The position numbers and the translations under genes were made by a program. From an uncultured archaeon (GTDB lineage Archaea; Thermoplasmatota; Penumbrarchaeia; JASLWR01), in the NCBI GenBank assembly GCA_964342815.1, contig CAYFHS010000033.1, positions 16,597 through 47,871 of the forward strand: a stretch of 31,275 bases of DNA, read 5' to 3'. Below the pieces are notes generated by a model that was given only the letters and a program-made list of their open reading frames with translations, was not told the origin of the DNA and ran no database searches. This document shows positions 9,837 to 31,275 of this stretch, piece by piece. Position 1 is the first letter of the stretch; each line of letters opens with the position of its first letter.

Positions 9837-10250
9837 TCAGGATATCGAATGATGTCCCTCCATCATTTTATTTGCTTCATGGATTTCATTGATTCTGATT
9901 CTTTTATCGTAAACAATGGCTTGAGCAAAGGCCACAGAATTGCTATGAGATAGACTAACCTGCATTACAAGATCATTTGTGTCATCTAAATTCACCTTTA
10001 CCATTGGAACACCGTTGGCATCGTTCAATATCTCGATATTTTCCACCCGCGCTTCTACTTTACGGTGTGACAGTGCCTTTACCATTGCTTCTTTTGCGCA
10101 AAACCTGGCAGCCAAATGCTTCTTTGGATCCGCTCTGCTGAAACAATATTCTATTTCATTTGGAGTGAAGATCCGCTCGAGGAACTTGCGATCATCAATT
10201 ATCTTTTGAAAACGCTCGATCTCCTCACAATCCACGCCTATGGAAATCAT
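9837..10250 (-). CDS. acpS: Holo-[acyl-carrier-protein] synthase (AcpS-type phosphopantetheinyl transferase)
   Basis: MISIGVDCEEIERF (GxD), RIFTPNEIEYC, HLAARFCAKEAMVKAL (FxxKEA), VQVSLSH-like 'MQVSLSHS'. Start moved to ATG 10250 by family length. Confidence 0.92.
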   Translation of the reverse strand: MISIGVDCEEIERFQKIIDDRKFLERIFTPNEIEYCFSRADPKKHLAARFCAKEAMVKALSHRKVEARVENIEILNDANGVPMVKVNLDDTNDLVMQVSLSHSNSVAFAQAIVYDKRIRINEIHEANKMMEGHHSIS

Positions 10251-10443: not shown

Positions 10444-10911
10444 ATGAGATTTTTCTTGATCGATCGAGTCGAAGAAATTTGCTATGAAAAATACATCACA
10501 GCAATTAAATGCATAACCCTTTCCGATGACGTTTTCGAACATCATTTCCCACGGTACCCCGTATTTCCCGGAAGCCTGCTCATTGAAGGGTTGGCCCAAT
10601 TAAGCGGTATGTTTCTTGAATTGATTTTGAAGAAAAATCAACTTCCTCCCAAACTTTCGTTCCTCTCCATAGTGAATAAAATGAAATTCCGCAAACCCGT
10701 CCTGGCCGGTGATCGTGTTTTTATGAGGGCAGATATTGTTTCGCTGAGGGAGGATTACGGAGTCGTCAAGGTATTAGCCGAGATTGATGGCGAAGTTGTT
10801 GCCGAAGGGGAGCTTACATTCGCCTTTCTGAGCCTGGATGATGAGAAACTACATCAATCACGGATGGAATTTTATGAAATATGTATGAAAAATGCGAGAG
10901 AAGTTTCATGA
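10444..10911 (+). CDS. fabZ: FabZ/FabA-family 3-hydroxyacyl-ACP dehydratase (hotdog fold)
   Basis: 'FFLIDRV', 'HHFPRYPVFPGSLLIEGLAQ' (His/Glu dyad), 'KFRKPVLAGD'; GGAG SD upstream. Confidence 0.88.
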   Translation: MRFFLIDRVEEICYEKYITAIKCITLSDDVFEHHFPRYPVFPGSLLIEGLAQLSGMFLELILKKNQLPPKLSFLSIVNKMKFRKPVLAGDRVFMRADIVSLREDYGVVKVLAEIDGEVVAEGELTFAFLSLDDEKLHQSRMEFYEICMKNAREVS

Positions 10912-11498
10912 AAGTGACATTTGATTCTTACAAACCCGGCGAAGAAATTCCCGTGGTTCAATATCTCAAGAACAGAAAACTGAGAAAATATTTCAATCGC
11001 GAAACCGAGGCCGCCCTTGTCGGGCTTGGAAAGTTGACCCGGAAGATTGAACTAACTCCGGAAACACCGTTCTATTATGCAACCGGGGTGATGGAATATC
11101 AAGATTACGGCCTTGAGGAAATTGTCAAGAACAGTACCGATGGGACAGGTGATTTCTCTCACAAACTCTTTATTGAAGAAGCCATTCCAAGAGTATCACC
11201 GTTAAATTTATTCAAGGTACTGCAGAATATGGCATTGAGCTTTATCGCCATAGAACACAATCTTGTAGGGGATAATGCGGTCATTTATGCCTCTGCATCC
11301 GGTCTGCTACTTCTGGCTTTGCATTCTTTATCCAATAATCCAATGCTTCTGGGGGCCAGCAAAACCTATAAAGACGGAAAAGTCGAGGCCGGATTTGCAT
11401 ATGTAGTGAAGGAGGAAATTGAGAAATCTCCCTTTTTATACGGCACGGAGAAGGCAGTAGATATGTTTCGATCATGGGCAACAAACCGAGGGGATTGA
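10908..11498 (+). CDS. Truncated, catalytically dead ketosynthase-like protein (N-terminal KS half; chain-length-factor-like)
   Basis: ATGA overlap with the fabZ stop. 'SPLNLFKVLQNMALSFIAIEHNLVGDNAVIYASASG' resembles the KS 'P....M.N......I.....GPN....ACASG' with Cys replaced by Ser. The C-terminal His-His half is absent. Confidence 0.65.
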   Translation: MKVTFDSYKPGEEIPVVQYLKNRKLRKYFNRETEAALVGLGKLTRKIELTPETPFYYATGVMEYQDYGLEEIVKNSTDGTGDFSHKLFIEEAIPRVSPLNLFKVLQNMALSFIAIEHNLVGDNAVIYASASGLLLLALHSLSNNPMLLGASKTYKDGKVEAGFAYVVKEEIEKSPFLYGTEKAVDMFRSWATNRGD

Positions 11499-11500
11499 TC

Positions 11501-12706
11501 ATGGGCAGAGTGGTGATTACTGGAGTGGGAGCGGTATCCCCTATAGGAAATAACTTCGAAGAAGTAATGGAAGGGATTCGAAATGGGAAAAGGGGGATCG
11601 GGACAATTCAAAGTATTGACCCCTGTCATTTACCCGGCAATGTTGGTGCGGAAGTAAGGAAAAATGGAAAACCTCTCCTGACCGAATCTCATATTGACCG
11701 GAAAGAGATATTTATCACTCAGGCTCTAGATGAACTTATTAAAGGGTACGGAAGGATCCATCGGTACCCTCCGGAAAAGAGATTCATGCATATGGGCGCA
11801 GGGCACGATTATCTGGATCTGATCGGATATACCAATAATCACGATGAAGCCGCGGGTAATTGGATCAATTATTCAAAGAGCGGCCATATTATAGTGAAAG
11901 AGCTTTCCAAAGTTCATGAAATCAAGGGCGGATTCAGCGTCAATGTGACCACATGTGTCGCTGCCACCCAGGCCATGGGAACTTCTTTCAGGCTGCTGAA
12001 ACAGTTATCCGCAGGGAATATTATTATTACCGGTGGTTTTGATTCCGTAATCAATCATTTGCACTATATGGCTTTTTACAAACTCGGAGCCATGTCAAAC
12101 TGGAAGGGAGAGCCGGGTCATGCCTGTCGTCCTTTCGATAAAAATCGGTCCGGATTGGTTTTGGGGGAAGGAGCGGGAGTTTTTCTGCTGCAAGATGCCG
12201 AAGATATGGCTGCCGGGGAAGGTCTTGCGGAGATAGTGGGGTACAGCTCCACAATGGATGCTTACAAGGTAACGGACCCCCACCCTCAGGGAAAACATCT
12301 GGCCAGAGCTGCCGTAAATGCCATTGAAGAAGCAGGGTTGAGATCTGCCGATATTGATTGCGTGCACCTGCATGGGACCGGCACATATAAAAATGCCATT
12401 GCCGAAACGAATGCCATGCAACAGATATTTCCCGAGCGCTGGGCTGAAATCCCGGTGTTCTCCATGAAAGGACAGATCGGTCACCTAATTGGGGCATGCG
12501 GCGCCCTTGAAATGATTGGTGTGATATATTCATTAAAATATCAGCTGGTACCGCCCACCGTCAATTTCAGCGAACAGGCCCCCGAGGCCCCCCTGCTGGT
12601 CATTAAGGATAAACCTCTGGAAATGAAAATAGACCATATACTGAAATTAAATTCTGCCTTCGGAGGGCAAAACAGTGCGTTAGTGGTGAAAAGATATGTC
12701 GAATAG
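11501..12706 (+). CDS. fabF: Beta-ketoacyl-ACP synthase (FabF/FabB family)
   Basis: RVVITGVGAVSPIG; catalytic Cys in 'VTTCVAATQA'; 'CRPFDKNRSGLVLGEGAG'; His in 'HGTGT' and 'KGQIGHLIGACG'; 'NSAFGGQN'. Start set at ATG 11501, 2 nt after the upstream stop. Confidence 0.9.
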   Translation: MGRVVITGVGAVSPIGNNFEEVMEGIRNGKRGIGTIQSIDPCHLPGNVGAEVRKNGKPLLTESHIDRKEIFITQALDELIKGYGRIHRYPPEKRFMHMGAGHDYLDLIGYTNNHDEAAGNWINYSKSGHIIVKELSKVHEIKGGFSVNVTTCVAATQAMGTSFRLLKQLSAGNIIITGGFDSVINHLHYMAFYKLGAMSNWKGEPGHACRPFDKNRSGLVLGEGAGVFLLQDAEDMAAGEGLAEIVGYSSTMDAYKVTDPHPQGKHLARAAVNAIEEAGLRSADIDCVHLHGTGTYKNAIAETNAMQQIFPERWAEIPVFSMKGQIGHLIGACGALEMIGVIYSLKYQLVPPTVNFSEQAPEAPLLVIKDKPLEMKIDHILKLNSAFGGQNSALVVKRYVE

Positions 12707-13415
12707 AATCATAATTACCGGTGCCAGTTCAGATATTGGCCTGGCCATTTGCAAAGCGATCATAAAAAAGGGGGATCAGGCTGTTTTGCAGTACTACAAG
12801 AATAAAGAAAAATTAATTCCATTATGTGAGACGTTAGGGGATAGCTGTCAGATGATATCCGTAAATTTTAATGAGGGGCGCGAGCTTAGCAGGTTTTCAA
12901 AAAAACAAAACGATGTAGATATCCTGATCAATGCGGCGGCAGTTACCAAAACAGATCTCCTACCGGTCTTGAAAGATGAAGATATCATGCGCATGATCAA
13001 CGTCAATATTCTCTCCACCGTGAAAATGTGCCGAGCAGTGATACCAAGCATGGTGGCGAGGAGGAAGGGATGTATTGTCAATATTTCATCCGTGGCCGCT
13101 AAGAGAGGTATCAGAGGGCAAAACGTATATGCCGGAACGAAAGGATTCATCGAATCCTTCTGCCGGGCAATGGCTGCCGAATACGGCAGCAGAGGCATAC
13201 GTTTAAATAATGTCGCACCAGGGCCCATTGAGGCTGGAAGTTTAATGGAATTACTGGGTTACGGTAAAGATGAAGTTAAAAAAAGCATGGTTTCAAAAAG
13301 GCTTGGAACGCCTGAAGATGTGGCGGCAGCTGTGGCTTTTTTATGCAGTGACAAGGCCTCATACATAAATGGTAAAACCATCTCTGTGGATGGAGCATTT
13401 TGCAGGGGTGTTTAA
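12696..13415 (+). CDS. fabG: FabG-like SDR (3-oxoacyl-ACP reductase family), copy 1
   Basis: TGASSDIG (variant Gly motif), NISS, YAGTK (YxxxK), 'NNVAPGPI', 'RLGTPEDVA..V.FL.SD.ASYING..ISVDG'. Confidence 0.85.
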   Translation: MSNRIIITGASSDIGLAICKAIIKKGDQAVLQYYKNKEKLIPLCETLGDSCQMISVNFNEGRELSRFSKKQNDVDILINAAAVTKTDLLPVLKDEDIMRMINVNILSTVKMCRAVIPSMVARRKGCIVNISSVAAKRGIRGQNVYAGTKGFIESFCRAMAAEYGSRGIRLNNVAPGPIEAGSLMELLGYGKDEVKKSMVSKRLGTPEDVAAAVAFLCSDKASYINGKTISVDGAFCRGV

Positions 13416-13419
13416 CAAA

Positions 13420-13995
13420 ATGGCATCCAATTATGAGAATCTGAAAACTATTTGCCTGAGTAGAAGAAGTGTTAGAGAATTTGCCCAGAAAAATGTTTCC
13501 GCCGAAGACATTGAAAAGATAAAGACAATCGCTTACACCTCACCATATGCATCCAACCGAAAAAACTGGGAATTAGTTGTCGTAACAGATAATATGCAAA
13601 TCGGAAATATAGTAGATCTGGTGGGAAAAAGTATAAACGATCTTGGAATGAAGGTCAGAGAAGATTTGCGGGAAGGATTCTCACAATACGCAGCTCATTT
13701 CACCGAATTTGGAACGGCCCCTGCTTTGATCATTCCAACGTTCAGGATATCTCCGGGATTATCAGTAATGCTCAACGATCCGAAAGAGAATTTTGTCCGG
13801 TGGGAACGAGACAATTATGTAAAATCCATTTCCTGTGTGGCCATGCTGGTTCTTCTGGCGGTGGAAAGCCTGGGATTGGTCGGATGCTACATGACCGGTC
13901 CACTTCTTGCGGAGAAGGAAATCGGGGATATGATAAATATTAAAAAAGGTAGAAATATAGGAGCGATGATTCCCATAGGATATCGTCAATGGTGA
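13420..13995 (+). CDS. Nitroreductase-family FMN-binding oxidoreductase
   Basis: 'RRSVREF', 'PYASNRKNWELVVV', 'LLAVESLGLVGCYMTG', 'IPIGY'. Start set at ATG 13420, 4 nt after the fabG stop. Confidence 0.85.
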   Translation: MASNYENLKTICLSRRSVREFAQKNVSAEDIEKIKTIAYTSPYASNRKNWELVVVTDNMQIGNIVDLVGKSINDLGMKVREDLREGFSQYAAHFTEFGTAPALIIPTFRISPGLSVMLNDPKENFVRWERDNYVKSISCVAMLVLLAVESLGLVGCYMTGPLLAEKEIGDMINIKKGRNIGAMIPIGYRQW

Positions 13996-14044
13996 AAATC
14001 TCGATAATCCCCACGGGCTCATGGAGATTTGCAGCTTGACAATG

Positions 14045-14221
14045 TTCGCGGAATCGGGGCCTGCAGGTGCCTGAAGAACAAGTTCTTCTGCACCCTATTG
14101 GAATCTCTGATTCTATGTCGGGGAACTTTTTGTTCCAAAGGGCTCAGGAGTATCTTTGATGCCTCGGAATGTAAAGGGAACCCGAAGGGCCGATTCCGCT
14201 GAATACTTGGGAGGATCAAGA
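14045..14221 (+). promoter_or_regulatory. Structured intergenic element upstream of the ACP gene (candidate cis-regulatory RNA or MITE)
   Basis: Perfect 10-bp inverted repeat GCGGAATCGG (14048-57) / CCGATTCCGC (14190-99) enclosing hairpins at 14066-14094, 14101-14113, 14122-14136 and 14181-14189. Confidence 0.5.
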
Positions 14222-14222
14222 C

Positions 14223-14615
14223 ATGGATGTTGAAGATAAATTGAGGGAAATCCTGTTACCCGTTTTTGGACTGATTACTATCGATGAGATCAAACCGGAA
14301 CATTCATTTGTCAACGACCTGGAAGTGGACAGCCTTGATTTCATTGAGATCATGCACCTGATAGAAGTAAATTTTGGAGTGGTGATCACCCAGGACGAGA
14401 CCCTGATAGGAGGACTTAAAATCGACAAGGCCATGTTGTTCGAGGACGGTTTGTTAACCAGTGAAGGAGAGGGGCTGTTGAAAGAGAACTATCCCAAAAG
14501 AAAGGGCGACCTGAGATCGGGGATGACTAAAATCGACCTTTTTTCATTGATCACTGTCCAGGACCTTGCAAACATCATCAAAGAAAAGTTAAAGGCCAAA
14601 AAAGATAGTGAGTGA
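14223..14615 (+). CDS. acpP: Acyl carrier protein, extended type (130 aa)
   Basis: 'DLEVDSLDFIEIMHLIEVNFGV' with Ser37 in the DSL phosphopantetheine site; C-terminal 'ITVQDLANII'; ~50-aa insertion between them; GGGAGG SD. Confidence 0.9.
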   Translation: MDVEDKLREILLPVFGLITIDEIKPEHSFVNDLEVDSLDFIEIMHLIEVNFGVVITQDETLIGGLKIDKAMLFEDGLLTSEGEGLLKENYPKRKGDLRSGMTKIDLFSLITVQDLANIIKEKLKAKKDSE

Positions 14616-14638: not shown

Positions 14639-15361
14639 ATGCTTAAAAACAAGATCGTATTTGTATCCGGCGGCTCCGGTTACCTGGGTTCTGCAATTTG
14701 TGAAAGGTGTGCCTATTATGGGGCAACGGTATATTTCTCATATTACAAAAATAAAGATCAAGCTGAAACAATGATGGAGCGGATCGAGGGATCGAAAGGA
14801 ATTAAGATCAACTTGAAGGACGTCCGGGATATTGAGGATAAGATAGAACAACTTCATAAAGAGATCGAAGGAGTGGATATCCTGGTGAATAACGCCGGAG
14901 TCAGTCAGATCATGCCGTTCCCCATGCTTGAAGAAGATGACGTGGATTTTATGATGGACTTGAATATCAAGGGTACGATTTTTCTTACTAAATCCATTAC
15001 CAGAAGAATGATAAAGCTCAAGCATGGTTCAATTGTCAATATTGGTTCAATTGCAGGACACCGCATGCTCGATGTGCCCGTACACTATGCTGTGACAAAG
15101 GCTGCAATGGCCGGGTTCACTTATTCTCTGGCCGCCCAGATGAAAAGGTATGGAATAAGAGTAAATTCCGTTGTCCCCGGTCTTCTGGAAGATGGGGTGT
15201 CGCGAGGAGTGCCAAAGGAGCTGCTGGAAGACTATCTGAACCACTGTTCTGTTGGCCGTCCGGGAACCGGTAAGGAAGTGGCTGAAGCGGTCTGTTTTCT
15301 GGCCTCAGACCGGGCGAGCTATATCAATGGACAGAATATCTTTGTTGATGGCGGTCTCTGA
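14639..15361 (+). CDS. fabG: FabG-like SDR (3-oxoacyl-ACP reductase family), copy 2
   Basis: SGGSGYLG, LVNNAG, NIGSIAG, YAVTK (YxxxK), 'RVNSVVPG', 'ASYINGQNIFVDGG'. Start could be GTG 14612 or ATG 14639. Confidence 0.85.
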   Translation: MLKNKIVFVSGGSGYLGSAICERCAYYGATVYFSYYKNKDQAETMMERIEGSKGIKINLKDVRDIEDKIEQLHKEIEGVDILVNNAGVSQIMPFPMLEEDDVDFMMDLNIKGTIFLTKSITRRMIKLKHGSIVNIGSIAGHRMLDVPVHYAVTKAAMAGFTYSLAAQMKRYGIRVNSVVPGLLEDGVSRGVPKELLEDYLNHCSVGRPGTGKEVAEAVCFLASDRASYINGQNIFVDGGL

Positions 15362-15376
15362 TAGAGGTTATTAATT

Positions 15377-16801
15377 ATGAAAACGGAAATCCTTCATTCT
15401 GAAACCAGGGCTTTGTGCCCTTCCTGCCGGGAGATTGTCAATGCTTCCATTATAGAAAAGGAGGGGCGGATCTACCTCAAGAAAATGTGCGAGGAGCACG
15501 GCGTTAGTTATGCTCTGACCTGTTCCGATCCCGAATGGTATCACGAGAGCACGAATTACGTGAAACCCGGCCAATCTCCCCTGGGCCTTAGTGTAAAGGA
15601 ATTCAAAGGCTGTCCAGATTCTTGCGGTCTTTGCCCGGAACATCAACAACATACATGCCTTCCAGTCATCGAAATAATGAGCGGCTGCGATATGGAGTGC
15701 CCAATATGTCTGAAAGATTTCGATAAATCCTTTCAAATGACGAAAACGGAGTTTAGAAATATCCTAAAACGGCTAAAAGCCTATGAACCGGACCTTAATG
15801 TAATTAATTTGAGCGGGGGCGAGCCGACCCTTCATCCTGAATTGGAAGAATTCCTGAAAATATCGGCAGAGGAAAACATCAACCAGGTAACTGTTTCCAC
15901 CAACGGGGTCAAATTATTAAACGACAAAAGGCTCAGGGAAGTTTTTAGGGAAACCGGTACCATTGCCTCTCTCCAGTTCGACGGTTTTCTTCCCCAAACC
16001 TATGAACGGTTGCGGGGTCGGGACCTTTATGATCAGAAAAAAAAGATCATTGCGGCCCTGGAAGAAGACAGCGTCAAATATTCTTTGGTTACCACTGTTG
16101 CCAAGAATATCAACGACCATGAGATAACGGATATTGTGGATTATTTTTTTCACTCCAAGGCTCTCAGTTTGATGTTCCAACCTGCAACTTTTACCGGTAG
16201 AGCCGCCGCCAATGACTTCGATCCCGATACGCTCCGCATCACGATCCCCGATATTGTCAGGGAGATCGAAAAAAACGAGAATGTCAAAAAGGGCGATTTC
16301 AATCCCATCCCCTGCTCTCACTATTCATGTTTTGCAGTATCATATTATTTAAAAGGTAAAGGTGACCCTGTTGGCTCCCCTAACTTGTCAGATGGTGACC
16401 TTACAAGCGATGATGAAAAGTATGTGAATATGAAGGACCTTTTGGGCCAAGACAACTTTATCAACATCCACACCAACCGCACATATCCGGGATTGGATGA
16501 AGAAGGATTTTCAATAATACAGGAGAGAATCTTTGGATTGTGGTCGGCGTCTGACTCCAGTGACGTCAATCAGAATGTTCTAAAGAGAATTCGCAGTATC
16601 TTTAACCAGCTCAATCGTGACTGTTTTTCTTCAAAAGAGGTTTTCGAAGAGGGGTCCAAATCCATGAAGAGCATATTCATTCACCAGCTCATGGATGTCC
16701 ACACTCTCGATATTGCCCGCCTGAAAAAATGCTGCAACCATTATGCTCTGGGAGACGGCCGCATAATACCAATGTGCGCCCAGAATGTTTTTTTCCAGTA
16801 A
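15377..16801 (+). CDS. Radical SAM protein of the tetraether lipid synthase (Tes/GDGT-MAS, MJ0619-like) family
   Basis: N-terminal CPSC...CEEHG; auxiliary GCPDSCGLCPEH; CDMECPIC radical SAM motif; GGEPTLH; TNG; LQFDG; FQPATFTGR; RITIPD; C-terminal 'HQLMD...D..RLKKCCNHY...GRIIPMC..N'. All match the Tes architecture as recalled. The family call is firmer than the function. Confidence 0.8.
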   Translation: MKTEILHSETRALCPSCREIVNASIIEKEGRIYLKKMCEEHGVSYALTCSDPEWYHESTNYVKPGQSPLGLSVKEFKGCPDSCGLCPEHQQHTCLPVIEIMSGCDMECPICLKDFDKSFQMTKTEFRNILKRLKAYEPDLNVINLSGGEPTLHPELEEFLKISAEENINQVTVSTNGVKLLNDKRLREVFRETGTIASLQFDGFLPQTYERLRGRDLYDQKKKIIAALEEDSVKYSLVTTVAKNINDHEITDIVDYFFHSKALSLMFQPATFTGRAAANDFDPDTLRITIPDIVREIEKNENVKKGDFNPIPCSHYSCFAVSYYLKGKGDPVGSPNLSDGDLTSDDEKYVNMKDLLGQDNFINIHTNRTYPGLDEEGFSIIQERIFGLWSASDSSDVNQNVLKRIRSIFNQLNRDCFSSKEVFEEGSKSMKSIFIHQLMDVHTLDIARLKKCCNHYALGDGRIIPMCAQNVFFQ

Positions 16802-16815
16802 TTTTATTATTCGCA

Positions 16816-17859
16816 TTAGCGCATCAGCATTATATTGTAAAATATCTTCAATACGCCCAAGGGCGAACTGCCGACGTAAGCGATATGTCCCTTGGAAGTA
16901 CTGAGATTCACATCCACATCCTTACCGCTATTTGACAGTTCTTTACGTATATTCAAGGTCTCTTCGGCTGAAATGAGCTTGTCCCCGGCTGCGTGCATCA
17001 GGAAAACCCGGGCTTTTATATCGGAGAGATATGAATTTAGGGAGAGATCCAATTTACACAATTGATCCGCCCGACTCATCCACCAATCAAAAACAGGACC
17101 CTCGGTGCTTTGCTTACCCAATCTTTTTATGAGCCTCTTCTCCTCCAGAGTGAAGTTATCCTCCCTCTTGCAGTAATCCGCCAATATCCCCTGAAGCAAA
17201 TTGGTATCATTTTGAGAAAGTTCTAGACATTCTCTTGCGCCCAAGGACAGGACAAGTCTAGCATAAATATCCGAGTCAGGATCGGTTAGTACCCTTTTCA
17301 TGAGGTTTTCCAAGGAGTAATAGGCCCCTGCCGCGAGAACAAAACCAACATTTTCCCTGACCTTTTCCATAGCTGAGAGAATTAGCCCATAGGTTGCGCC
17401 TGCCGAGAAGCCTATGATCCCGAAAAATTTGTGGTTCTTACTTATGGACTCTGCCATTTCCACCAAGGTTTCGATATCTTTGAAACGGAAGTCCAGGTTC
17501 GTCATGCCTTCAAGGTGAGGGGTATATACCTCGAAACCGCATAACGCCAGGTTATGTGCAAAATGTACAAGCCTCGGATCGTTGTAACCTTTGGGAGATA
17601 AACCATGGAGGACGAACAATGGGTACGAGCTGTTCTTTCCCGTATAGCATCGACTTTTATCAGTCCACTTATGATCAAAGTCCTTGACCCGGATTCGGTT
17701 GCGCAGGATCCTACCAAGACCGGCGTGAAGGGAAAGCATGTAAGCTGTATGAATTGCGGATCTAAATCTATCTCCCTGTTGTTTGGCCGTAATATGTTCA
17801 TCTCCTTGCTCGATTTTTCTTCCGATAATATCCCTGATTGGTGATTTAAATTTTTTCAA
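16816..17859 (-). CDS. Alpha/beta-hydrolase fold protein (possible esterase/thioesterase)
   Basis: 'VLHGLSPKGYNDPRL', nucleophile elbow GFSAG, 'MHAAGDKLIS' (Asp) and 'GHI' (His). TTG start is uncertain. Confidence 0.75.
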   Translation of the reverse strand: MKKFKSPIRDIIGRKIEQGDEHITAKQQGDRFRSAIHTAYMLSLHAGLGRILRNRIRVKDFDHKWTDKSRCYTGKNSSYPLFVLHGLSPKGYNDPRLVHFAHNLALCGFEVYTPHLEGMTNLDFRFKDIETLVEMAESISKNHKFFGIIGFSAGATYGLILSAMEKVRENVGFVLAAGAYYSLENLMKRVLTDPDSDIYARLVLSLGARECLELSQNDTNLLQGILADYCKREDNFTLEEKRLIKRLGKQSTEGPVFDWWMSRADQLCKLDLSLNSYLSDIKARVFLMHAAGDKLISAEETLNIRKELSNSGKDVDVNLSTSKGHIAYVGSSPLGVLKIFYNIMLMR

Positions 17860-20929: not shown

Positions 20930-21172
20930 CTATTGTACAACGGGATTCAATGGCATCACCCCGTTATGTCTTACCTTTTTCGCCCCGTACTCCCGGAGTA
21001 TTCCCTCTCTGTCATCAGGTCTTATTCTCAGTACTATCCCGCAATCGGAACTGATGTGCCGGGGAGTTGGTATGCATCTAACTGAAAATCCGGCTTTCCT
21101 TGCCACCTGTTCACCTCGAATGGCGAGGCTCGTGGAATCGAAAATAATGACAAAATAGTCGGTGTCATCCAT
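20930..21172 (-). CDS. DUF3343-family small protein (putative S/Se carrier)
   Basis: 'IIFDSTSLAIRGEQ......F.VRCIPTPRHISSDCGIVLRI' matches the F.S...A......IP.PR.IS..CG pattern; directly follows the desulfurase. Confidence 0.8.
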   Translation of the reverse strand: MDDTDYFVIIFDSTSLAIRGEQVARKAGFSVRCIPTPRHISSDCGIVLRIRPDDREGILREYGAKKVRHNGVMPLNPVVQ

Positions 21173-22342
21173 CTATCCCACCAGTTCCTCCAGCGCTTCC
21201 ACCGCAAAATCGATTTCTTCCGCTCGGTTGAAATATCCAAATCCAAATCGTACCGTTCCATGGGGAAAGGTCCCAATGGTCCTGTGAGCTGCTGGTGCGC
21301 AGTGAAGGCCCACCCTGCACAATATATTAAATTGCTCCTCGAGTAAAAGACCTATCTCGGATTGAGAACTATCTCGTATGTTTATGGAGACGACGGACGT
21401 CTGCTTTTTCACGTCCTTTCCACCGTACACATCAATGCCGTGTATGTGTTTGATCCCATCTATGAACCTGGCCGTCAGATCCATTTTCTTCTGATGGATA
21501 TTATCCACCGTTCGATCAAGAATGTAACCCAGCCCTGCCGTCAAACCGGCCAGACCCAATGCGTTCATGGTACCGCTCTCGTACTTGTCCGGAAGGAAAT
21601 CCGGATGATGCTCGGACTCGGATCGGCTCCCGCTTCCACCGGATCTCGCCCGGTTGAAACTTGCGATGTCAACATTTTCACCTATGGCGAGACCCCCGGT
21701 TCCCTGCGGACCCATGAGCCCTTTATGACCGGTGAATGCCACGAGATCGATATTGTCACGCTTCATATCGATTGGGATGCTCCCGGCAGTCTGGGCACTG
21801 TCGATCAAATATTTTATATTACTGTCCCTTGCCAAGTTCCCAATTTCTCGTAGCGGGGCCAGGCTTCCCACCACGTTGGAGCCGTGATTGACCACTATCA
21901 TCTTCGTTTCCGACGTGATGGCATTCCGGACGTCATCCGGATCGAGAAAACCTTCACTGCTGCACTTAACCACTGTTACCCGAAGCCCCTGATTCTCGAG
22001 ATCACGAAGCGGTCTCATGACCGAATTGTGCTCCATGCTGCTGGTGATGACGTGATCTTTCCGGTTAAGTAAACCCCTCATTGCCAGATTGAGTCCTTCT
22101 GTTGCATTGAGACCAAAAACAACCCTCATGGGGTCCTCAAGGTTGAAAAGTCGTGCAATATTTTCCCTGGCGAAATAAACGACTCTGCCCGCTTCCACGG
22201 AAAGGCGGTGGCCCGAGCGGCCGGGATTGGCGCCTATATTCTTCATGAAATCCAACATCGCCTCCGCAACGCAATCCGGTTTCGGCCAGGATGTAGCTGC
22301 ATTGTCGAAATAGATTATTTTCGGTCTATTTGTATCGGGCAT
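21173..22342 (-). CDS. Cysteine desulfurase / selenocysteine-lyase-like PLP enzyme (aminotransferase class V)
   Basis: 'IYFDNAATSWPKP', 'NATEGLN', 'EHNSVMRP', 'DSAQTAG', 'FTGHKGLMGPQG' (PLP Lys), 'RVGLHCAP' (persulfide Cys). Confidence 0.92.
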   Translation of the reverse strand: MPDTNRPKIIYFDNAATSWPKPDCVAEAMLDFMKNIGANPGRSGHRLSVEAGRVVYFARENIARLFNLEDPMRVVFGLNATEGLNLAMRGLLNRKDHVITSSMEHNSVMRPLRDLENQGLRVTVVKCSSEGFLDPDDVRNAITSETKMIVVNHGSNVVGSLAPLREIGNLARDSNIKYLIDSAQTAGSIPIDMKRDNIDLVAFTGHKGLMGPQGTGGLAIGENVDIASFNRARSGGSGSRSESEHHPDFLPDKYESGTMNALGLAGLTAGLGYILDRTVDNIHQKKMDLTARFIDGIKHIHGIDVYGGKDVKKQTSVVSINIRDSSQSEIGLLLEEQFNILCRVGLHCAPAAHRTIGTFPHGTVRFGFGYFNRAEEIDFAVEALEELVG

Positions 22343-22377
22343 TCGGTTATCTCCGTGGTGTCCATCTAATAAATGGT

Positions 22378-22965
22378 TTAAAACCGCACCACCTTGCCGG
22401 CTCCCAGCAGGATTTCGGCAATGGTGTAGGCATTGGATATCTCCCCGACGGCAAGCCTATCTTTGAGATCGAAAAAGTCCAGACAGGTCCCGCATACAAG
22501 TATTTCAACTCCTCCGTCCCGGAGCTTTTCAAGGTCCTCCAATGATTCTGAACCATCCACAGCCAATTTTACACCGCTGTTCATGAAAATGAACACATCC
22601 GGCTTTGGTTCGACCTCCAAAATGGAATATATGAGGGACTTCGCGAGGATGCTCCCCAGCTCGTCTTCACCTCTTCCCACGGTGTTCGAAGGGAAAAATA
22701 CCACCGTGGGGCTGGCTTTTTTCCCAAGGTCGGGCCTCGATCTTTCTTCGGATCCCTCTATCTTGCTGATTTGTAGATAATGATCCTTCCCTTTTGTGCG
22801 GACATTGACCTTGTATCCCCTCTTGATTGCTCCGCGCGATATGTTCTGTATTGCGTCATCATCGTCGACTATAACGAGCAGCTCGTCTGCGTTGCGCAGC
22901 GCTCTTCCGGTACGTATCGCAGGTTCGGGGCATTTAAGTCCCCTGAGATCCAATTCTTCAGCCAT
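22378..22965 (-). CDS. yedF: YedF-type sulfurtransferase-like protein (TusA/SirA domain plus DsrE-like domain)
   Basis: 'LDLRGLKCPEP' (TusA CPxP), 'GRGEDELGSILAKS', 'FMNSGVKLA', 'CGTCLDFF', 'GEISNAYTI'. ATG 22965 has a GGAG SD. Confidence 0.85.
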   Translation of the reverse strand: MAEELDLRGLKCPEPAIRTGRALRNADELLVIVDDDDAIQNISRGAIKRGYKVNVRTKGKDHYLQISKIEGSEERSRPDLGKKASPTVVFFPSNTVGRGEDELGSILAKSLIYSILEVEPKPDVFIFMNSGVKLAVDGSESLEDLEKLRDGGVEILVCGTCLDFFDLKDRLAVGEISNAYTIAEILLGAGKVVRF

Positions 22966-22986
22966 TATAATTGCTCCGGTGCTCAA

Positions 22987-24465
22987 CTACTTGTTTGTAA
23001 GAACGAGAAAGTATTCGCCCCCGTCCCTTGGCTCTATTTTCGAGGTCCACCCTTCGCTTTCAGCCGTTTTTTCGATGTTATCCCTTGCTTCTTTCTCGTT
23101 CACCAGTATCTCGAGAACTCCCCCTTCCATTTCCCACATCTTCTCCTGGGTCTGCCATACTGGTTCAGGGCATTGCAGACCCCGTAGATCCAGTTTTTCT
23201 CTTCGGAATTTCTTTGGATTATCATCTTCATATACAGGTTGGGGCATTCCAAGCTTTTTGAAGAATTCGGGCATCCTCCTGTTCTTAATCTTTTTCGTAA
23301 TTTCCATGGAGGTCTCTTTACAAAGCGGGAATTTCCCTTCCTGATCGAAGCCTTTTTTGAACTGTGCGTGTGCGGCTCTTACAAAACACTCGTGCCGGGG
23401 AACACAGTACCTCCCGGCCATGGCCTGGTAAGCAGCTGCGAATCCTTCCTCTTTTACGTTACCGAACGATAGAGGTATCATGTCGCAGGGAGTGACCGTT
23501 CCATCATTTTCGATGAATATGTGATAGGTTCCCGCCATACAGCCCAGCATCCCCTCGCTTTCCAGGTAGGAGTATTCGCTGATCTTGGGAAAATCCTTGT
23601 CCCTGTTGAGTTTCTTATGGTATTTCCACATCTTCTTTTCCTCGTCTGTTCCGCACCATCTTGCCTCGCGGTTACCCACCAGCTTTCCGGTGGGGATGGG
23701 CGCAAGGACCCTCACTTCGTGGACCCCGATATCCTTCAAAAAGCGGTAATAAATCGGAACCTCGCCGCCGTTGATCATCTCCTTTGTGGGAACTGCTCCT
23801 GCGATGGTATAAAGGCCCGCTTCATTGGATGCCTCGATAGCTTTCACTGCGATGTCGAATGCGCCTTCGTATCCCCGCAATTTATCGTGGATCTCCGCCT
23901 TGTAATGATCGAGGCTTATGGAAGCGGCGAACAAACCCCTCTTCTTCAGCTCTCTCGCGCGCTCGAAACCCAGTTTCTCGCCATTGGTGAACAGAATGGT
24001 ATGGGATTTTGTTCCTATGGCTTCCACGATATCTTCAAGGTCGTCTCTAAGCGTGGGCTCCCCGCCGGTGAGACCAATGAAGCAGTTACCCATGTCCTGC
24101 AGCTGCCGGATAGTGCTTATAAGAAGGTCCAGTGGAAAGTCTTCACTTTCCTCACGGCCCCAGTTGCTGCAGTGCCAGCAGGAAAAATTGCACCTGTTCG
24201 TGACGCTGATGTTGCAGGAGAACGGGAAGGTTTCACCCTTCTTCATACGTGGGATGAATCTTAGAAATCGGTCGAATGCCTCGGAGCCGAACGGCGGCAT
24301 CTGGGAATTCATCACCACCTTCCCGTCGATCTCCACGAACTTCTCGTATTTCGAAGAACTGCGCAAATACATGAGAAATCGTTTATCGAGGGCCCGGATC
24401 TCCTTTTTCCTGAGCATTTTGAGCATCATCAGGTCCTTTGCCCTGCCGATAAGAAATTTCACCAA
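22987..24465 (-). CDS. Radical SAM protein with SPASM/Twitch domain fused to a C-terminal TusA-like sulfur-carrier domain
   Basis: CNFSCWHC; GGEPTLRDD; FTNG; 'GCMAG...I..DG.VTPCD' SPASM/Twitch; C-terminal 'KLDLRGLQCPEPV....GVLEILVN...ARDNI...AESEGW'. TTG start after a GGGGGA SD. Confidence 0.88.
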   Translation of the reverse strand: MVKFLIGRAKDLMMLKMLRKKEIRALDKRFLMYLRSSSKYEKFVEIDGKVVMNSQMPPFGSEAFDRFLRFIPRMKKGETFPFSCNISVTNRCNFSCWHCSNWGREESEDFPLDLLISTIRQLQDMGNCFIGLTGGEPTLRDDLEDIVEAIGTKSHTILFTNGEKLGFERARELKKRGLFAASISLDHYKAEIHDKLRGYEGAFDIAVKAIEASNEAGLYTIAGAVPTKEMINGGEVPIYYRFLKDIGVHEVRVLAPIPTGKLVGNREARWCGTDEEKKMWKYHKKLNRDKDFPKISEYSYLESEGMLGCMAGTYHIFIENDGTVTPCDMIPLSFGNVKEEGFAAAYQAMAGRYCVPRHECFVRAAHAQFKKGFDQEGKFPLCKETSMEITKKIKNRRMPEFFKKLGMPQPVYEDDNPKKFRREKLDLRGLQCPEPVWQTQEKMWEMEGGVLEILVNEKEARDNIEKTAESEGWTSKIEPRDGGEYFLVLTNK

Positions 24466-29559: not shown

Positions 29560-30618
29560 TCACTTTTCTATCACACCGGTTATGGTGGCAGCCTTCCTGG
29601 CGGCCTCCTCGCTGATACCGGGTCCCAGTATCGTGAAGCGCTCAGGTCTTATCTTGGGCGCGTCCACGATAGCTTTTACAACCATATCGTCAGGGATCTC
29701 CAGCTCGGCTGCAGTGGTGGCAAGACCTATCTTTTTCATGGCATCTCTCGTGAAAAGCCAATCCTCCCCGTGAAGATACATCATTATAATGCTGCCCAGG
29801 GCGCACTGCTCCCCGTGCAGGGCAGGTTTGTCCAGGATATGGTCGAGAGTGTGCGAGAACATGTGCTCAGCTCCGCTGGCCGGGCGCGACGATCCTGCTA
29901 TTGCCATTGCCACTCCGCCACCTAACAGAGCCTTTACCACCTTCCATGCCGATTCCTCGAGGCCCTCCTTTATGAACTCCGCATCCCGTATCAACAGCTC
30001 CGCGCTCATCTTCGCAAGCACAGCTGCATAGCTTGAAAAATGCTCGTTGGTCAATCGGTGAGATAGTTCCCAGTCCTTCACTGCCGAATAATTCGATATG
30101 ACGTCACCGTAGCCAGCAGAAAGCAATCTGAACGGGGATTTGGCAATGATACCTGTATCAGCTAGCAGCGCAACGGGGGGTCTCGCTTCCATGGATTTTG
30201 CTCTACCACCCTGATGAATGGAGGCTCTCCCGGATACTATCCCGTCATGAGAGGCCGCAGTGGGTACCGATATGAACGGAAGCCCATTGGTAAAAGCAGT
30301 GTATTTTGCAACGTCGATGGACCTTCCACCGCCTACCCCTATGGTGAATCGAGCATTCTGTTCCTTTATAACACGGTTGGTTCCGCTGATACTTCCTTCA
30401 TTGGCTCCGCTGATCTCGTAAAGACGGATCTCGTAGCCGTGTTCAACCAGCTGGTCACGAAGAGAGGATGCAGCGACCTTCCTGGTGACCGGATCACAAA
30501 CGATGACAGCATTTTTTTCCAGTTCCAACTCATCAATTATTCGGGCGGCATCATCCAGGATATTTTGTCCAATATGAACTGCTCTTGGTAAAAGAATGGA
30601 CAGCGTTTTTGAAAAAAT
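29560..30618 (-). CDS. egsA: NAD(P)-dependent sn-glycerol-1-phosphate dehydrogenase
   Basis: 'GVGGGRSIDVAKY', 'FISVPTAASHDGIVS', 'LSAGYGDVISN', 'SSRPASGAEHMFSH', 'LHGEQC', 'RPERFTIL'. The conserved N-terminal 'LPRAVHIG' lies upstream of the track start (30528), implying an ATT start at 30618. Confidence 0.92.
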   Translation of the reverse strand: MFSKTLSILLPRAVHIGQNILDDAARIIDELELEKNAVIVCDPVTRKVAASSLRDQLVEHGYEIRLYEISGANEGSISGTNRVIKEQNARFTIGVGGGRSIDVAKYTAFTNGLPFISVPTAASHDGIVSGRASIHQGGRAKSMEARPPVALLADTGIIAKSPFRLLSAGYGDVISNYSAVKDWELSHRLTNEHFSSYAAVLAKMSAELLIRDAEFIKEGLEESAWKVVKALLGGGVAMAIAGSSRPASGAEHMFSHTLDHILDKPALHGEQCALGSIIMMYLHGEDWLFTRDAMKKIGLATTAAELEIPDDMVVKAIVDAPKIRPERFTILGPGISEEAARKAATITGVIEK

Positions 30619-30663: not shown

Positions 30664-30790
30664 ATGGTGGACAGCGAACCGAGGTTCCCATGAGCGCGAG
30701 CATCACAGTACCACAAGGAACGCGGACAGGCTTAACTTCTGGGTTCGGGATGTTACCAGGTGAGCCCTATCGCTCTGGCCGTCCTACCAT
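30664..30790 (-). rRNA. rrf: 5S ribosomal RNA (archaeal type)
   Basis: Sense: UGGUAGGACGGCCAGAGCG...CAUCCCGAACCCAGAAGUUAAGC...GUACUG...GGGAACC.CGGUUCGCUGUCCACCA; terminal stem closes. Ends approximate. Confidence 0.93.
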
Positions 30791-30839
30791 TCTAATGTGA
30801 AAGTTATCATACGCAATCTGTCAAACGGTTGAGTCGATA

Positions 30840-31275
30840 ATATGCAGCTGAGATGATTAGTAATTGCGAGCTGAATATCTCGGTCCTAGTCAACATTTTA
30901 CGGTTCCGGCTTTGGGCCGAAGCCCTCCGCTTTTCCCGCAAAAGAGGTTGGTAGGAATAATCCTCGATACTTACACACCAATCCTATTAACCCAGTCTTT
31001 TACTGGAATCTCAATGGCGCTTCTTTTCAGGGCGGGTTTCAGGCTTAGATGCTTTCAGCCTTTATCCCTTACAGCGTGGCTGCCCAGCGATGCCTTGCCA
31101 GACAACTGGTAGACTAGCGGCTGCGAGCCCTTGTTCCTCTCGTACTAAAGGGTCCTTCCCCTCAAGCGCCGAACACTTCTAGCGGGGAGCAACAAACCTG
31201 TCTCACGACGGTCTAAACCCATCTCACGATCCCTTTTAATGGGCGAACAACCCCACCCTTGGCAGCTGCTGCACT
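30840..31275 (-). rRNA. rrl: 23S ribosomal RNA, 3' part (continues beyond the window)
   Basis: Sense contains GGGUUUAGACCGUCGUGAGACAGG, the sarcin-ricin loop UAGUACGAGAGGAAC, GCUGAAAGCAUCUAAG, GUGUAAG...UUCAGC...ACUAAU. 3' end approximate. Confidence 0.96.

Follow-up and report, generated by a model that had tools for sequence, protein, structure and literature searches.

A Tes-family radical SAM enzyme in a dedicated type II fatty-acid/polyketide cassette of a marine Thermoplasmatota archaeon

What does an enzyme resembling tetraether synthase (Tes/GDGT-MAS) do as the last gene of an ACP operon in an archaeon? This question is raised by the window, i.e. the whole stretch of 31,275 nucleotides analyzed in this study, which comes from an uncultured member of the Thermoplasmatota (host genome G000; features in Table 1). 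In the initial annotation, the gene had been read as an archaeal Tes-like paralogue performing C–C coupling or cyclization on ACP-bound or ACP-derived acyl chains. The enzyme is a real Tes-family variant, so far uncharacterized, that is encoded in an orphan lipid cluster. With very high confidence, we assign its gene to type B in a bacterial clade whose members are radical SAM enzymes of the Tes family located in a dedicated type II fatty-acid/polyketide cassette. This cassette reached one marine Thermoplasmatota genus in one block, by transfer from an Aminicenantes-like bacterium, and is under purifying selection. New in this respect are the minimal archaeal version of the cluster, the donor it came from, the selection acting on it, and the changed ligand in the enzyme.

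Table 1. Features of the window with their positions and strands.
Feature	Position	Strand	Remark
AcpS-type phosphopantetheinyl transferase	9837..10250	-	divergent from operon
FabZ-type dehydratase	10444..10911	+	77% to L104
Truncated ketosynthase N-terminal domain, chain-length-factor-like partner	10908..11498	+	196 aa
FabF-like ketosynthase (KS)	11501..12706	+	catalytic Cys and both His motifs present
SDR/FabG-like reductase 1	12696..13415	+	
Nitroreductase-family flavoprotein	13369..13995	+	core cassette gene
Host-lineage dispersed repeat between nitroreductase and ACP genes	13996..14222	.	
Long ACP	14223..14615	+	130 aa, DSL serine
SDR/FabG-like reductase 2 (KR2)	14639..15361	+	
Tes-family radical SAM enzyme, fab-cluster clade, paralogue type B	15377..16801	+	474 aa
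Host dispersed repeat, in frame in enzyme loop	16346..16410	+	~residues 324-345
Alpha/beta hydrolase	16816..17859	-	GxSxG motif; convergent
Four-gene sulfur/selenium-relay module	20930-24465	-	
G1P dehydrogenase	29560-30528		above cut-off
5S rRNA and 3′ end of archaeal 23S rRNA	30666-31275	-	contig end

The enzyme and its relation to Tes

The open reading frame of the enzyme is intact and is the final co-oriented gene of the ACP operon, as initially annotated, starting 15 bp after KR2 and being followed by a convergent gene. All four metal sites of Tes are present, by motif and by alignment: a rubredoxin-like site (C14-x2-C17-x20-C38-x2-H41) with a spacing equal to that of Tes C9/C12/C33/H36, an N-terminal auxiliary cluster motif (C79-x3-C83-x2-C86-x2-H89), the radical SAM cluster (C104/C108/C111), and a C-terminal cluster set consisting of C318/C452/C467 and H436. 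The C-terminal residues comprise M439-D440, C452-C453, Y456, and C467; C318, located in an HxxC motif, is an extra conserved Cys, and C94/C313/C453 form a second Cys set. Pfam matches over the cut-off were obtained for PF23545 (N-terminal zinc-ribbon/rubredoxin) and PF04055 (radical SAM core). A sequence search of the PDB returned only Tes and SkfB, the match to 7TOL (E=2.6e-57) being far beyond chance and Tes/GDGT-MAS being the sole solved full-length relative. The AlphaFold model (pLDDT 85) was matched by Foldseek to 7TOL/7TOM with a TM of 0.81, the runner-up reaching 0.38. With both Pfam domains and the Tes fold, the enzyme is a member of the wider Tes/HMPTM-like family.

Within this family, it is almost certainly not Tes itself, which confirms the initial placement outside canonical Tes. 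Against the Tes/GDGT-MAS model NF045702, with a curated cut-off of 450 bits, the enzyme scored 270.2 bits, while ten relatives within class and phylum scored 564–678 bits. In a careful, unrooted tree, all paralogues from fab clusters formed a single 100/100 clade, and the window protein was placed inside this bacterial clade as sister to an Aminicenantes protein (locus L104), followed by Calditrichia; its grouping with the archaeal and acidobacterial Tes was rejected by the AU test (p=1.08e-6; lnL 188 lower), and a second tree likewise placed it in the bacterial clade.

The structural alignment with Tes (27% identity) revealed where the metal sites differ. Since the chain numbering of 7TOL is offset by 20 residues, Met439 of Tes aligns to His436 of the enzyme and not to its ‘MD’. 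This Met is the labile ligand of the substrate-bonding cluster of Tes and is completely conserved in 1000 archaeal homologues (PMC9433317). It was found in 33/33 Tes, while His occupies the position in all A, B, and C paralogues that were aligned, those of the core type as well as the myxobacterial ones. Thus, all motifs listed in the initial annotation are present, but ‘MD’ is not the Tes cluster ligand and C318 had been missed. C318, C452, C467, and Y456 fall in alignment columns that do not vary across 33/33 Tes. As the text of the Tes paper gave no ligand list, it is the conservation of the three Cys that suggests them as ligands of the C-terminal cluster. Y456, the equivalent of Tes Tyr459, is also invariant across the type-B paralogues (clade B), as are three additional residues, Cys 94, 313, and 453. 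A Tes-specific insert of ~20 residues before the HxxC motif, which may belong to the second lipid pocket, is absent from the enzyme in the alignment.

His436 and C94/C313/C453 were considered as signatures of clade B and rejected, as wider sampling found them in some other non-Tes subfamilies. They separate the enzyme from Tes without defining its chemistry and, occurring also outside fab clusters, are no marker of sulfur chemistry. Tes and paralogue A (see below) have C318/C452/C467 alone, Lgt-linked homologues have C94/C313/C453 alone, and clade B has both, a sequence pattern suggesting that the wider family has two separable three-Cys sets forming two alternative metal sites. In 23/121 sampled genomes of the acidobacterial phylum, Tes-family genes above the Tes cut-off with Met439 kept were detected (L140-L162); these are better candidates for brGDGT synthesis than the fab-cluster clade.

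The archaeal cassette, its bacterial relatives, and its origin

The operon encodes, in this order, FabZ, the truncated KS, KS, an SDR, the nitroreductase, ACP, a second SDR, and the radical SAM enzyme. A dedicated type II FAS/PKS set is present, with KS, CLF-like partner, KR, dehydratase, ACP with its Ser, and PPTase; neither a malonyl transacylase or standard enoyl reductase nor desaturase-like or CoA-ligase genes were found within the cassette. The truncated KS has no Pfam match, and its fold has a TM of 0.81 to KS proteins and 0.75 to a cluster with 13% PF13723. The ACP carries an extension of ~45 aa which is conserved within the cluster family. The nitroreductase-family flavoprotein, whose gene is present in 45/80 loci, may serve as enoyl reductase or oxidase. 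The alpha/beta hydrolase (dN/dS 0.18), with homologues in or beside 10/80 loci, is a candidate release or transfer enzyme. The AcpS gene (dN/dS 0.27 versus the congener) was not seen in the bacterial loci of the cluster, which points to a gain on the archaeal side or to carriage from an unsampled donor. With ten genes, one radical enzyme, and its own PPTase, the cassette found in two archaeal species is the smallest version seen; paralogue A and a desulfurase-rhodanese are absent from it.

The cluster was analyzed in 80 loci of named genomes covering more than ten phyla; locus L163 (genome G069) was excluded from all analyses. KS, FabZ, or ACP genes, often in the gene order of the window, were found in 44/46 loci of at least 15 kb, so that the fab/ACP linkage noted initially recurs across more than ten phyla. 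Because related loci are not independent, these counts should be taken as a description of the sample, not as a statistical test. As a weak control, no KS, FabZ, or ACP gene was found within 1.5 kb of 33 Tes genes over the cut-off. Most bacterial loci contain a second Tes-like paralogue A, which is ~27% identical and whose subtree resembles that of B. In 20/25 long core-type loci, a NifS-type desulfurase fused to a rhodanese is encoded, with PLP Lys and GSAC Cys kept in 32/32 copies and the rhodanese-type Cys in nearly all. Its direct neighbor is FabZ in 17/32 copies and a Tes-like gene in 9/32, i.e. 26/32 copies lie beside one of these genes, and thereby the desulfurase tracks the radical SAM pair through cluster rearrangement. 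It was found in 0/15 long myxobacterial-type loci and in 0/2 archaeal copies. Myxobacterial-type clusters contain an aminotransferase and sometimes a third paralogue. Further accessory genes vary (hexapeptide acyltransferase, PEMT/ICMT-like protein, SPASM radical SAM, class III aminotransferase, DUF1571); the PEMT/ICMT-like neighbor gave no thiol-methyltransferase match. In the cultured myxobacterium Sorangium (G042), paralogues A and B are part of a variant cluster, and a third paralogue lies ~30 kb off, adjoining a class III aminotransferase (L134-L136); no desulfurase was seen within 60 kb.

For all eight operon genes, the best match was the Aminicenantes locus L104 (68–80%), the next-best reaching 49–64%, which indicates that the cassette was acquired by transfer. 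The direction from bacteria to archaea is favored, in the unrooted tree, by the position of the two archaeal sequences, which are nested among those of many bacterial phyla. L104 contains the desulfurase and lacks paralogue A within its cluster. In the simplest history, the cassette had no A when it was transferred, the desulfurase was lost, and AcpS was gained. Among 401 Thermoplasmatota genomes, the clade is present only in the host and its congener G001 (727 and 708 bits; next 398). Compared with the congener, dN/dS was 0.07–0.14 for the eight operon genes and 0.085 for the enzyme. Also, the cassette contains repeats of the host lineage: the intergenic one has ~40 matches in its own genome and many in G001 and G003, and the one inside the enzyme gene has 7 other matches in its own genome. 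The latter lies in a loop (pLDDT <50 at residues 330-346) in which the congener carries a longer repeat insert (L023:10960-11230) and the bacterial homologues none; the inserts add ~18 residues in the window and ~84 in the congener with unbroken reading frames. Low dN/dS and host repeats inside the cassette mark it as resident. A sigma-70 promoter scan was uninformative, the host being archaeal.

Bacterial contamination, misassembly, or a decaying relic can thus be given a negligible probability. The genes do look bacterial, and paralogue A and the desulfurase are absent, but A is likewise missing from the cluster of L104, and the contig itself carries archaeal 23S and 5S rRNA and G1P dehydrogenase genes. 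An identical enzyme protein occurs in marine metagenome assemblies, and the context is the same in independent assemblies and in the congener; selection (dN/dS 0.085) and host repeats argue in the same direction. Very improbable, too, is that the enzyme is the functional Tes of the genome, making GDGT or macrocyclic archaeol in an incidental neighborhood. No other Tes-like gene was found in the host genome, where G1P dehydrogenase is present, and the search for a separate canonical tes proposed in the initial annotation detected none in this 89%-complete genome. Yet its score (270 versus 450 bits) and the AU test (p=1.08e-6) set it apart from Tes, and its closest relatives are bacterial cluster genes; as a bacterial gene acquired by transfer and without a second Tes-like copy found, it is not the archaeal paralogue it had been taken for. 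Moreover, two other genera of the host family have no Tes-like gene, canonical Tes was not detected in the four family genomes G000-G003, and GGGP synthase (PF01884) was not found in 4/4 of them (89–93% complete), while controls matched clearly. In other families of the class, Tes was found above the cut-off.

Substrate and candidate reaction

The substrate of the enzyme is likely an acyl chain built by the cassette. This is made likely by the intact KS, the truncated-KS/CLF fold, the ACP serine, and the ACC and AT of the host; it is drawn from conserved linkage, and with this linkage extending across many phyla, the acyl substrate proposed initially is the best reading. The complex prediction for the enzyme and its own ACP (score 0.00) counts neither for nor against binding. 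Malonyl supply in the host comprises a single-chain ACC and the AT domain of a PfaA-like synthase. The former is a 2112-aa, eukaryote-type acetyl-CoA carboxylase with an ACC central domain (G000:C13:40568-46906; L115), the latter a 3219-aa type I synthase with 2 KS, AT, 6 ACP, KR, and DH (G000:C41:18695-28354; L114). KS domains occur in 4/4 genomes of the host family and in 22/24 genomes of f7, a family in the same class as the host, the best ones in long open frames. The host also has two PlsC-type acyltransferases and 14 UbiA-family genes.

Sulfur insertion into the cassette-made chain, by analogy with known sulfur-inserting enzymes, is the outcome that we tentatively favor, with a confidence somewhat below even. 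In the likely part of this pathway, AcpS would prime the long ACP, and KS/CLF, the two reductases, FabZ, and the flavoprotein would assemble an acyl chain from host malonyl units, which the enzyme would modify on the ACP or once released. As judged from Tes (PMC9433317), the 5′-deoxyadenosyl radical would take H from an unactivated carbon and the carbon radical would form a bond with a sulfide in the auxiliary cluster at the C-terminal end (C318/C452/C467 and His436). In contrast to Tes, but as with LipA and BioB, the C–S bond would be retained, and the product would be a fatty acid bearing a thiol, a thioether, or a sulfur ring. Restoring the spent cluster would fall to the NifS-rhodanese in bacteria and to housekeeping desulfurases in the archaeon. 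A four-gene module in the window had been considered as replacement sulfur donor of the cassette and was rejected, as it is absent at the locus of the congener and present in the cassette-less G003. This module, which is patchy in the family and not tied to the cassette, encodes a SPASM radical SAM-TusA fusion, YedF (TIGR03527), a cysteine desulfurase (TIGR01977), and PF11823.

A consumed cluster, and hence sulfur insertion, would account for the dedicated desulfurase-rhodanese tracking the enzyme pair; the missing Tes insert and the release of a thiolated lipid by Tes when its second step stalls (PMC9433317) also count for this reading. As this desulfurase accompanies most bacterial homologues, sulfur insertion is at least as likely as C–C coupling, which the initial annotation had put forward and which is not established. 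Against sulfur insertion, none of the 15 long myxobacterial-type loci and neither archaeal copy has the desulfurase, and yet they are maintained; the private NifS may merely load Fe-S into two to five cluster-rich enzymes; and the sole characterized family member forms C–C bonds, its Tyr459 being kept as Y456. The same absence together with the precedent of Tes keeps alive a Tes-like C–C reaction on cassette-made chains, in which a transient C–S adduct would be displaced by a second radical to yield an intrachain ring or a tail-to-tail diacid. This is quite possible, and less probable than the sulfur reading: fold and all four metal sites are as in Tes, Y456 is invariant in clade B, and the two PlsC-type acyltransferases of the host could take such chains, but the desulfurase-rhodanese accompanying the enzyme pair is left unexplained, the Tes insert is missing, none of the A, B, and C paralogues has Met at the position of Met439, and an ACP brings one chain where Tes holds two lipids. 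Some other radical tailoring (anaerobic desaturation, oxidation, or coupling of a small co-substrate), with the flavoprotein finishing the redox chemistry and the product maybe a diffusible metabolite instead of a membrane lipid, is rather improbable. It would suit the widely varying accessory genes, as in secondary-metabolite clusters, and the patchy distribution over more than ten phyla; the sequence gives it no direct support, and an olefin route was tested in Tes and not found (PMC9433317).

The cassette product is probably a lipid without existing description. Hybrid acyl-isoprenoid lipids, also suggested in the initial annotation, are unlikely, given the bacterial nature of the cassette and the host family in which no GGGP synthase was found, and nothing links the product to a known orphan sedimentary lipid, of which it had been named a candidate source. 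The most far-reaching version, in which an archaeon without a found GGGP synthase or Tes makes a sulfur-bearing or cross-linked fatty-acyl lipid by means of a Tes-fold enzyme acting on an ACP-bound chain, perhaps with a fifth metal site (C94/C313/C453), must be regarded as speculative and somewhat unlikely. If true, the Tes fold would gain a new reaction, and an unexplained lipid found in low-oxygen waters would have an enzymatic source.

Significance and comparison with known systems

Hundreds of bacterial ‘Tes homologues’ have been viewed as possible makers of branched GDGTs, experimental proof lacking (PMC8941075, PMC11868695). As the clade described here stands apart from Tes and is linked to a private acyl cassette, such matches should not be counted as tetraether producers, and this caution applies to bacteria and marine Thermoplasmatota alike. 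The archaeal copy is a compact kit for learning the product of a widespread orphan cluster and could show whether the Tes fold can retain sulfur that is normally only borrowed. In a literature search, with most subscription journals outside its reach, no description of the cluster was found, and the accessible part of a 2026 review contains no such ACP-linked system.

Aryl-polyene and ladderane-type FASII clusters have a private KS with truncated CLF, KR, dehydratase, and ACP, and ladderane-type clusters carry radical SAM genes as well. The cassette shares the private set of KS, truncated CLF, KR, dehydratase, and ACP with both. Nitroreductase and cysteine desulfurase are never mentioned in the paper on the ladderane-type cluster (Rattray 2009, PMC2649909). 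LipA, BioB, and the LipS1/LipS2 pair are comparable in how they work: H is abstracted at an unactivated acyl carbon, capture is by an auxiliary cluster with a non-Cys ligand (ligand comparison in PMC9433317), and paralogues are paired in bacteria. This likeness is by analogy, as these enzymes have other auxiliary domains; neither the LipA nor the BioB family was among the best 25 NCBIfam matches of the enzyme.

Closer by sequence are TrsS and the uncharacterized Lgt-linked and methyltransferase-linked subfamilies, which have the same QHxC / PC / CC cysteine set and likewise lack the Tes insert. The enzyme differs from them in having no selenocysteine and in its separate branch, and scored 259.9 bits against TrsS (NF045646; cut-off 490); fab genes were not found beside the examined members of these subfamilies. 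With Tes/GDGT-MAS (MJ0619; 7TOL, 7TOM; NF045702; Lloyd 2022, PMC9433317; Zeng 2022, PMC8941075), it shares the fold, the rubredoxin-like site, the N-terminal cluster motif, the SAM cluster, the three C-terminal Cys, and the equivalent of Tyr459. Unlike Tes, it has His in place of Met439, no ~20-aa insert, and three extra invariant Cys, belongs to a separate clade, and is encoded in an ACP/KS cassette.
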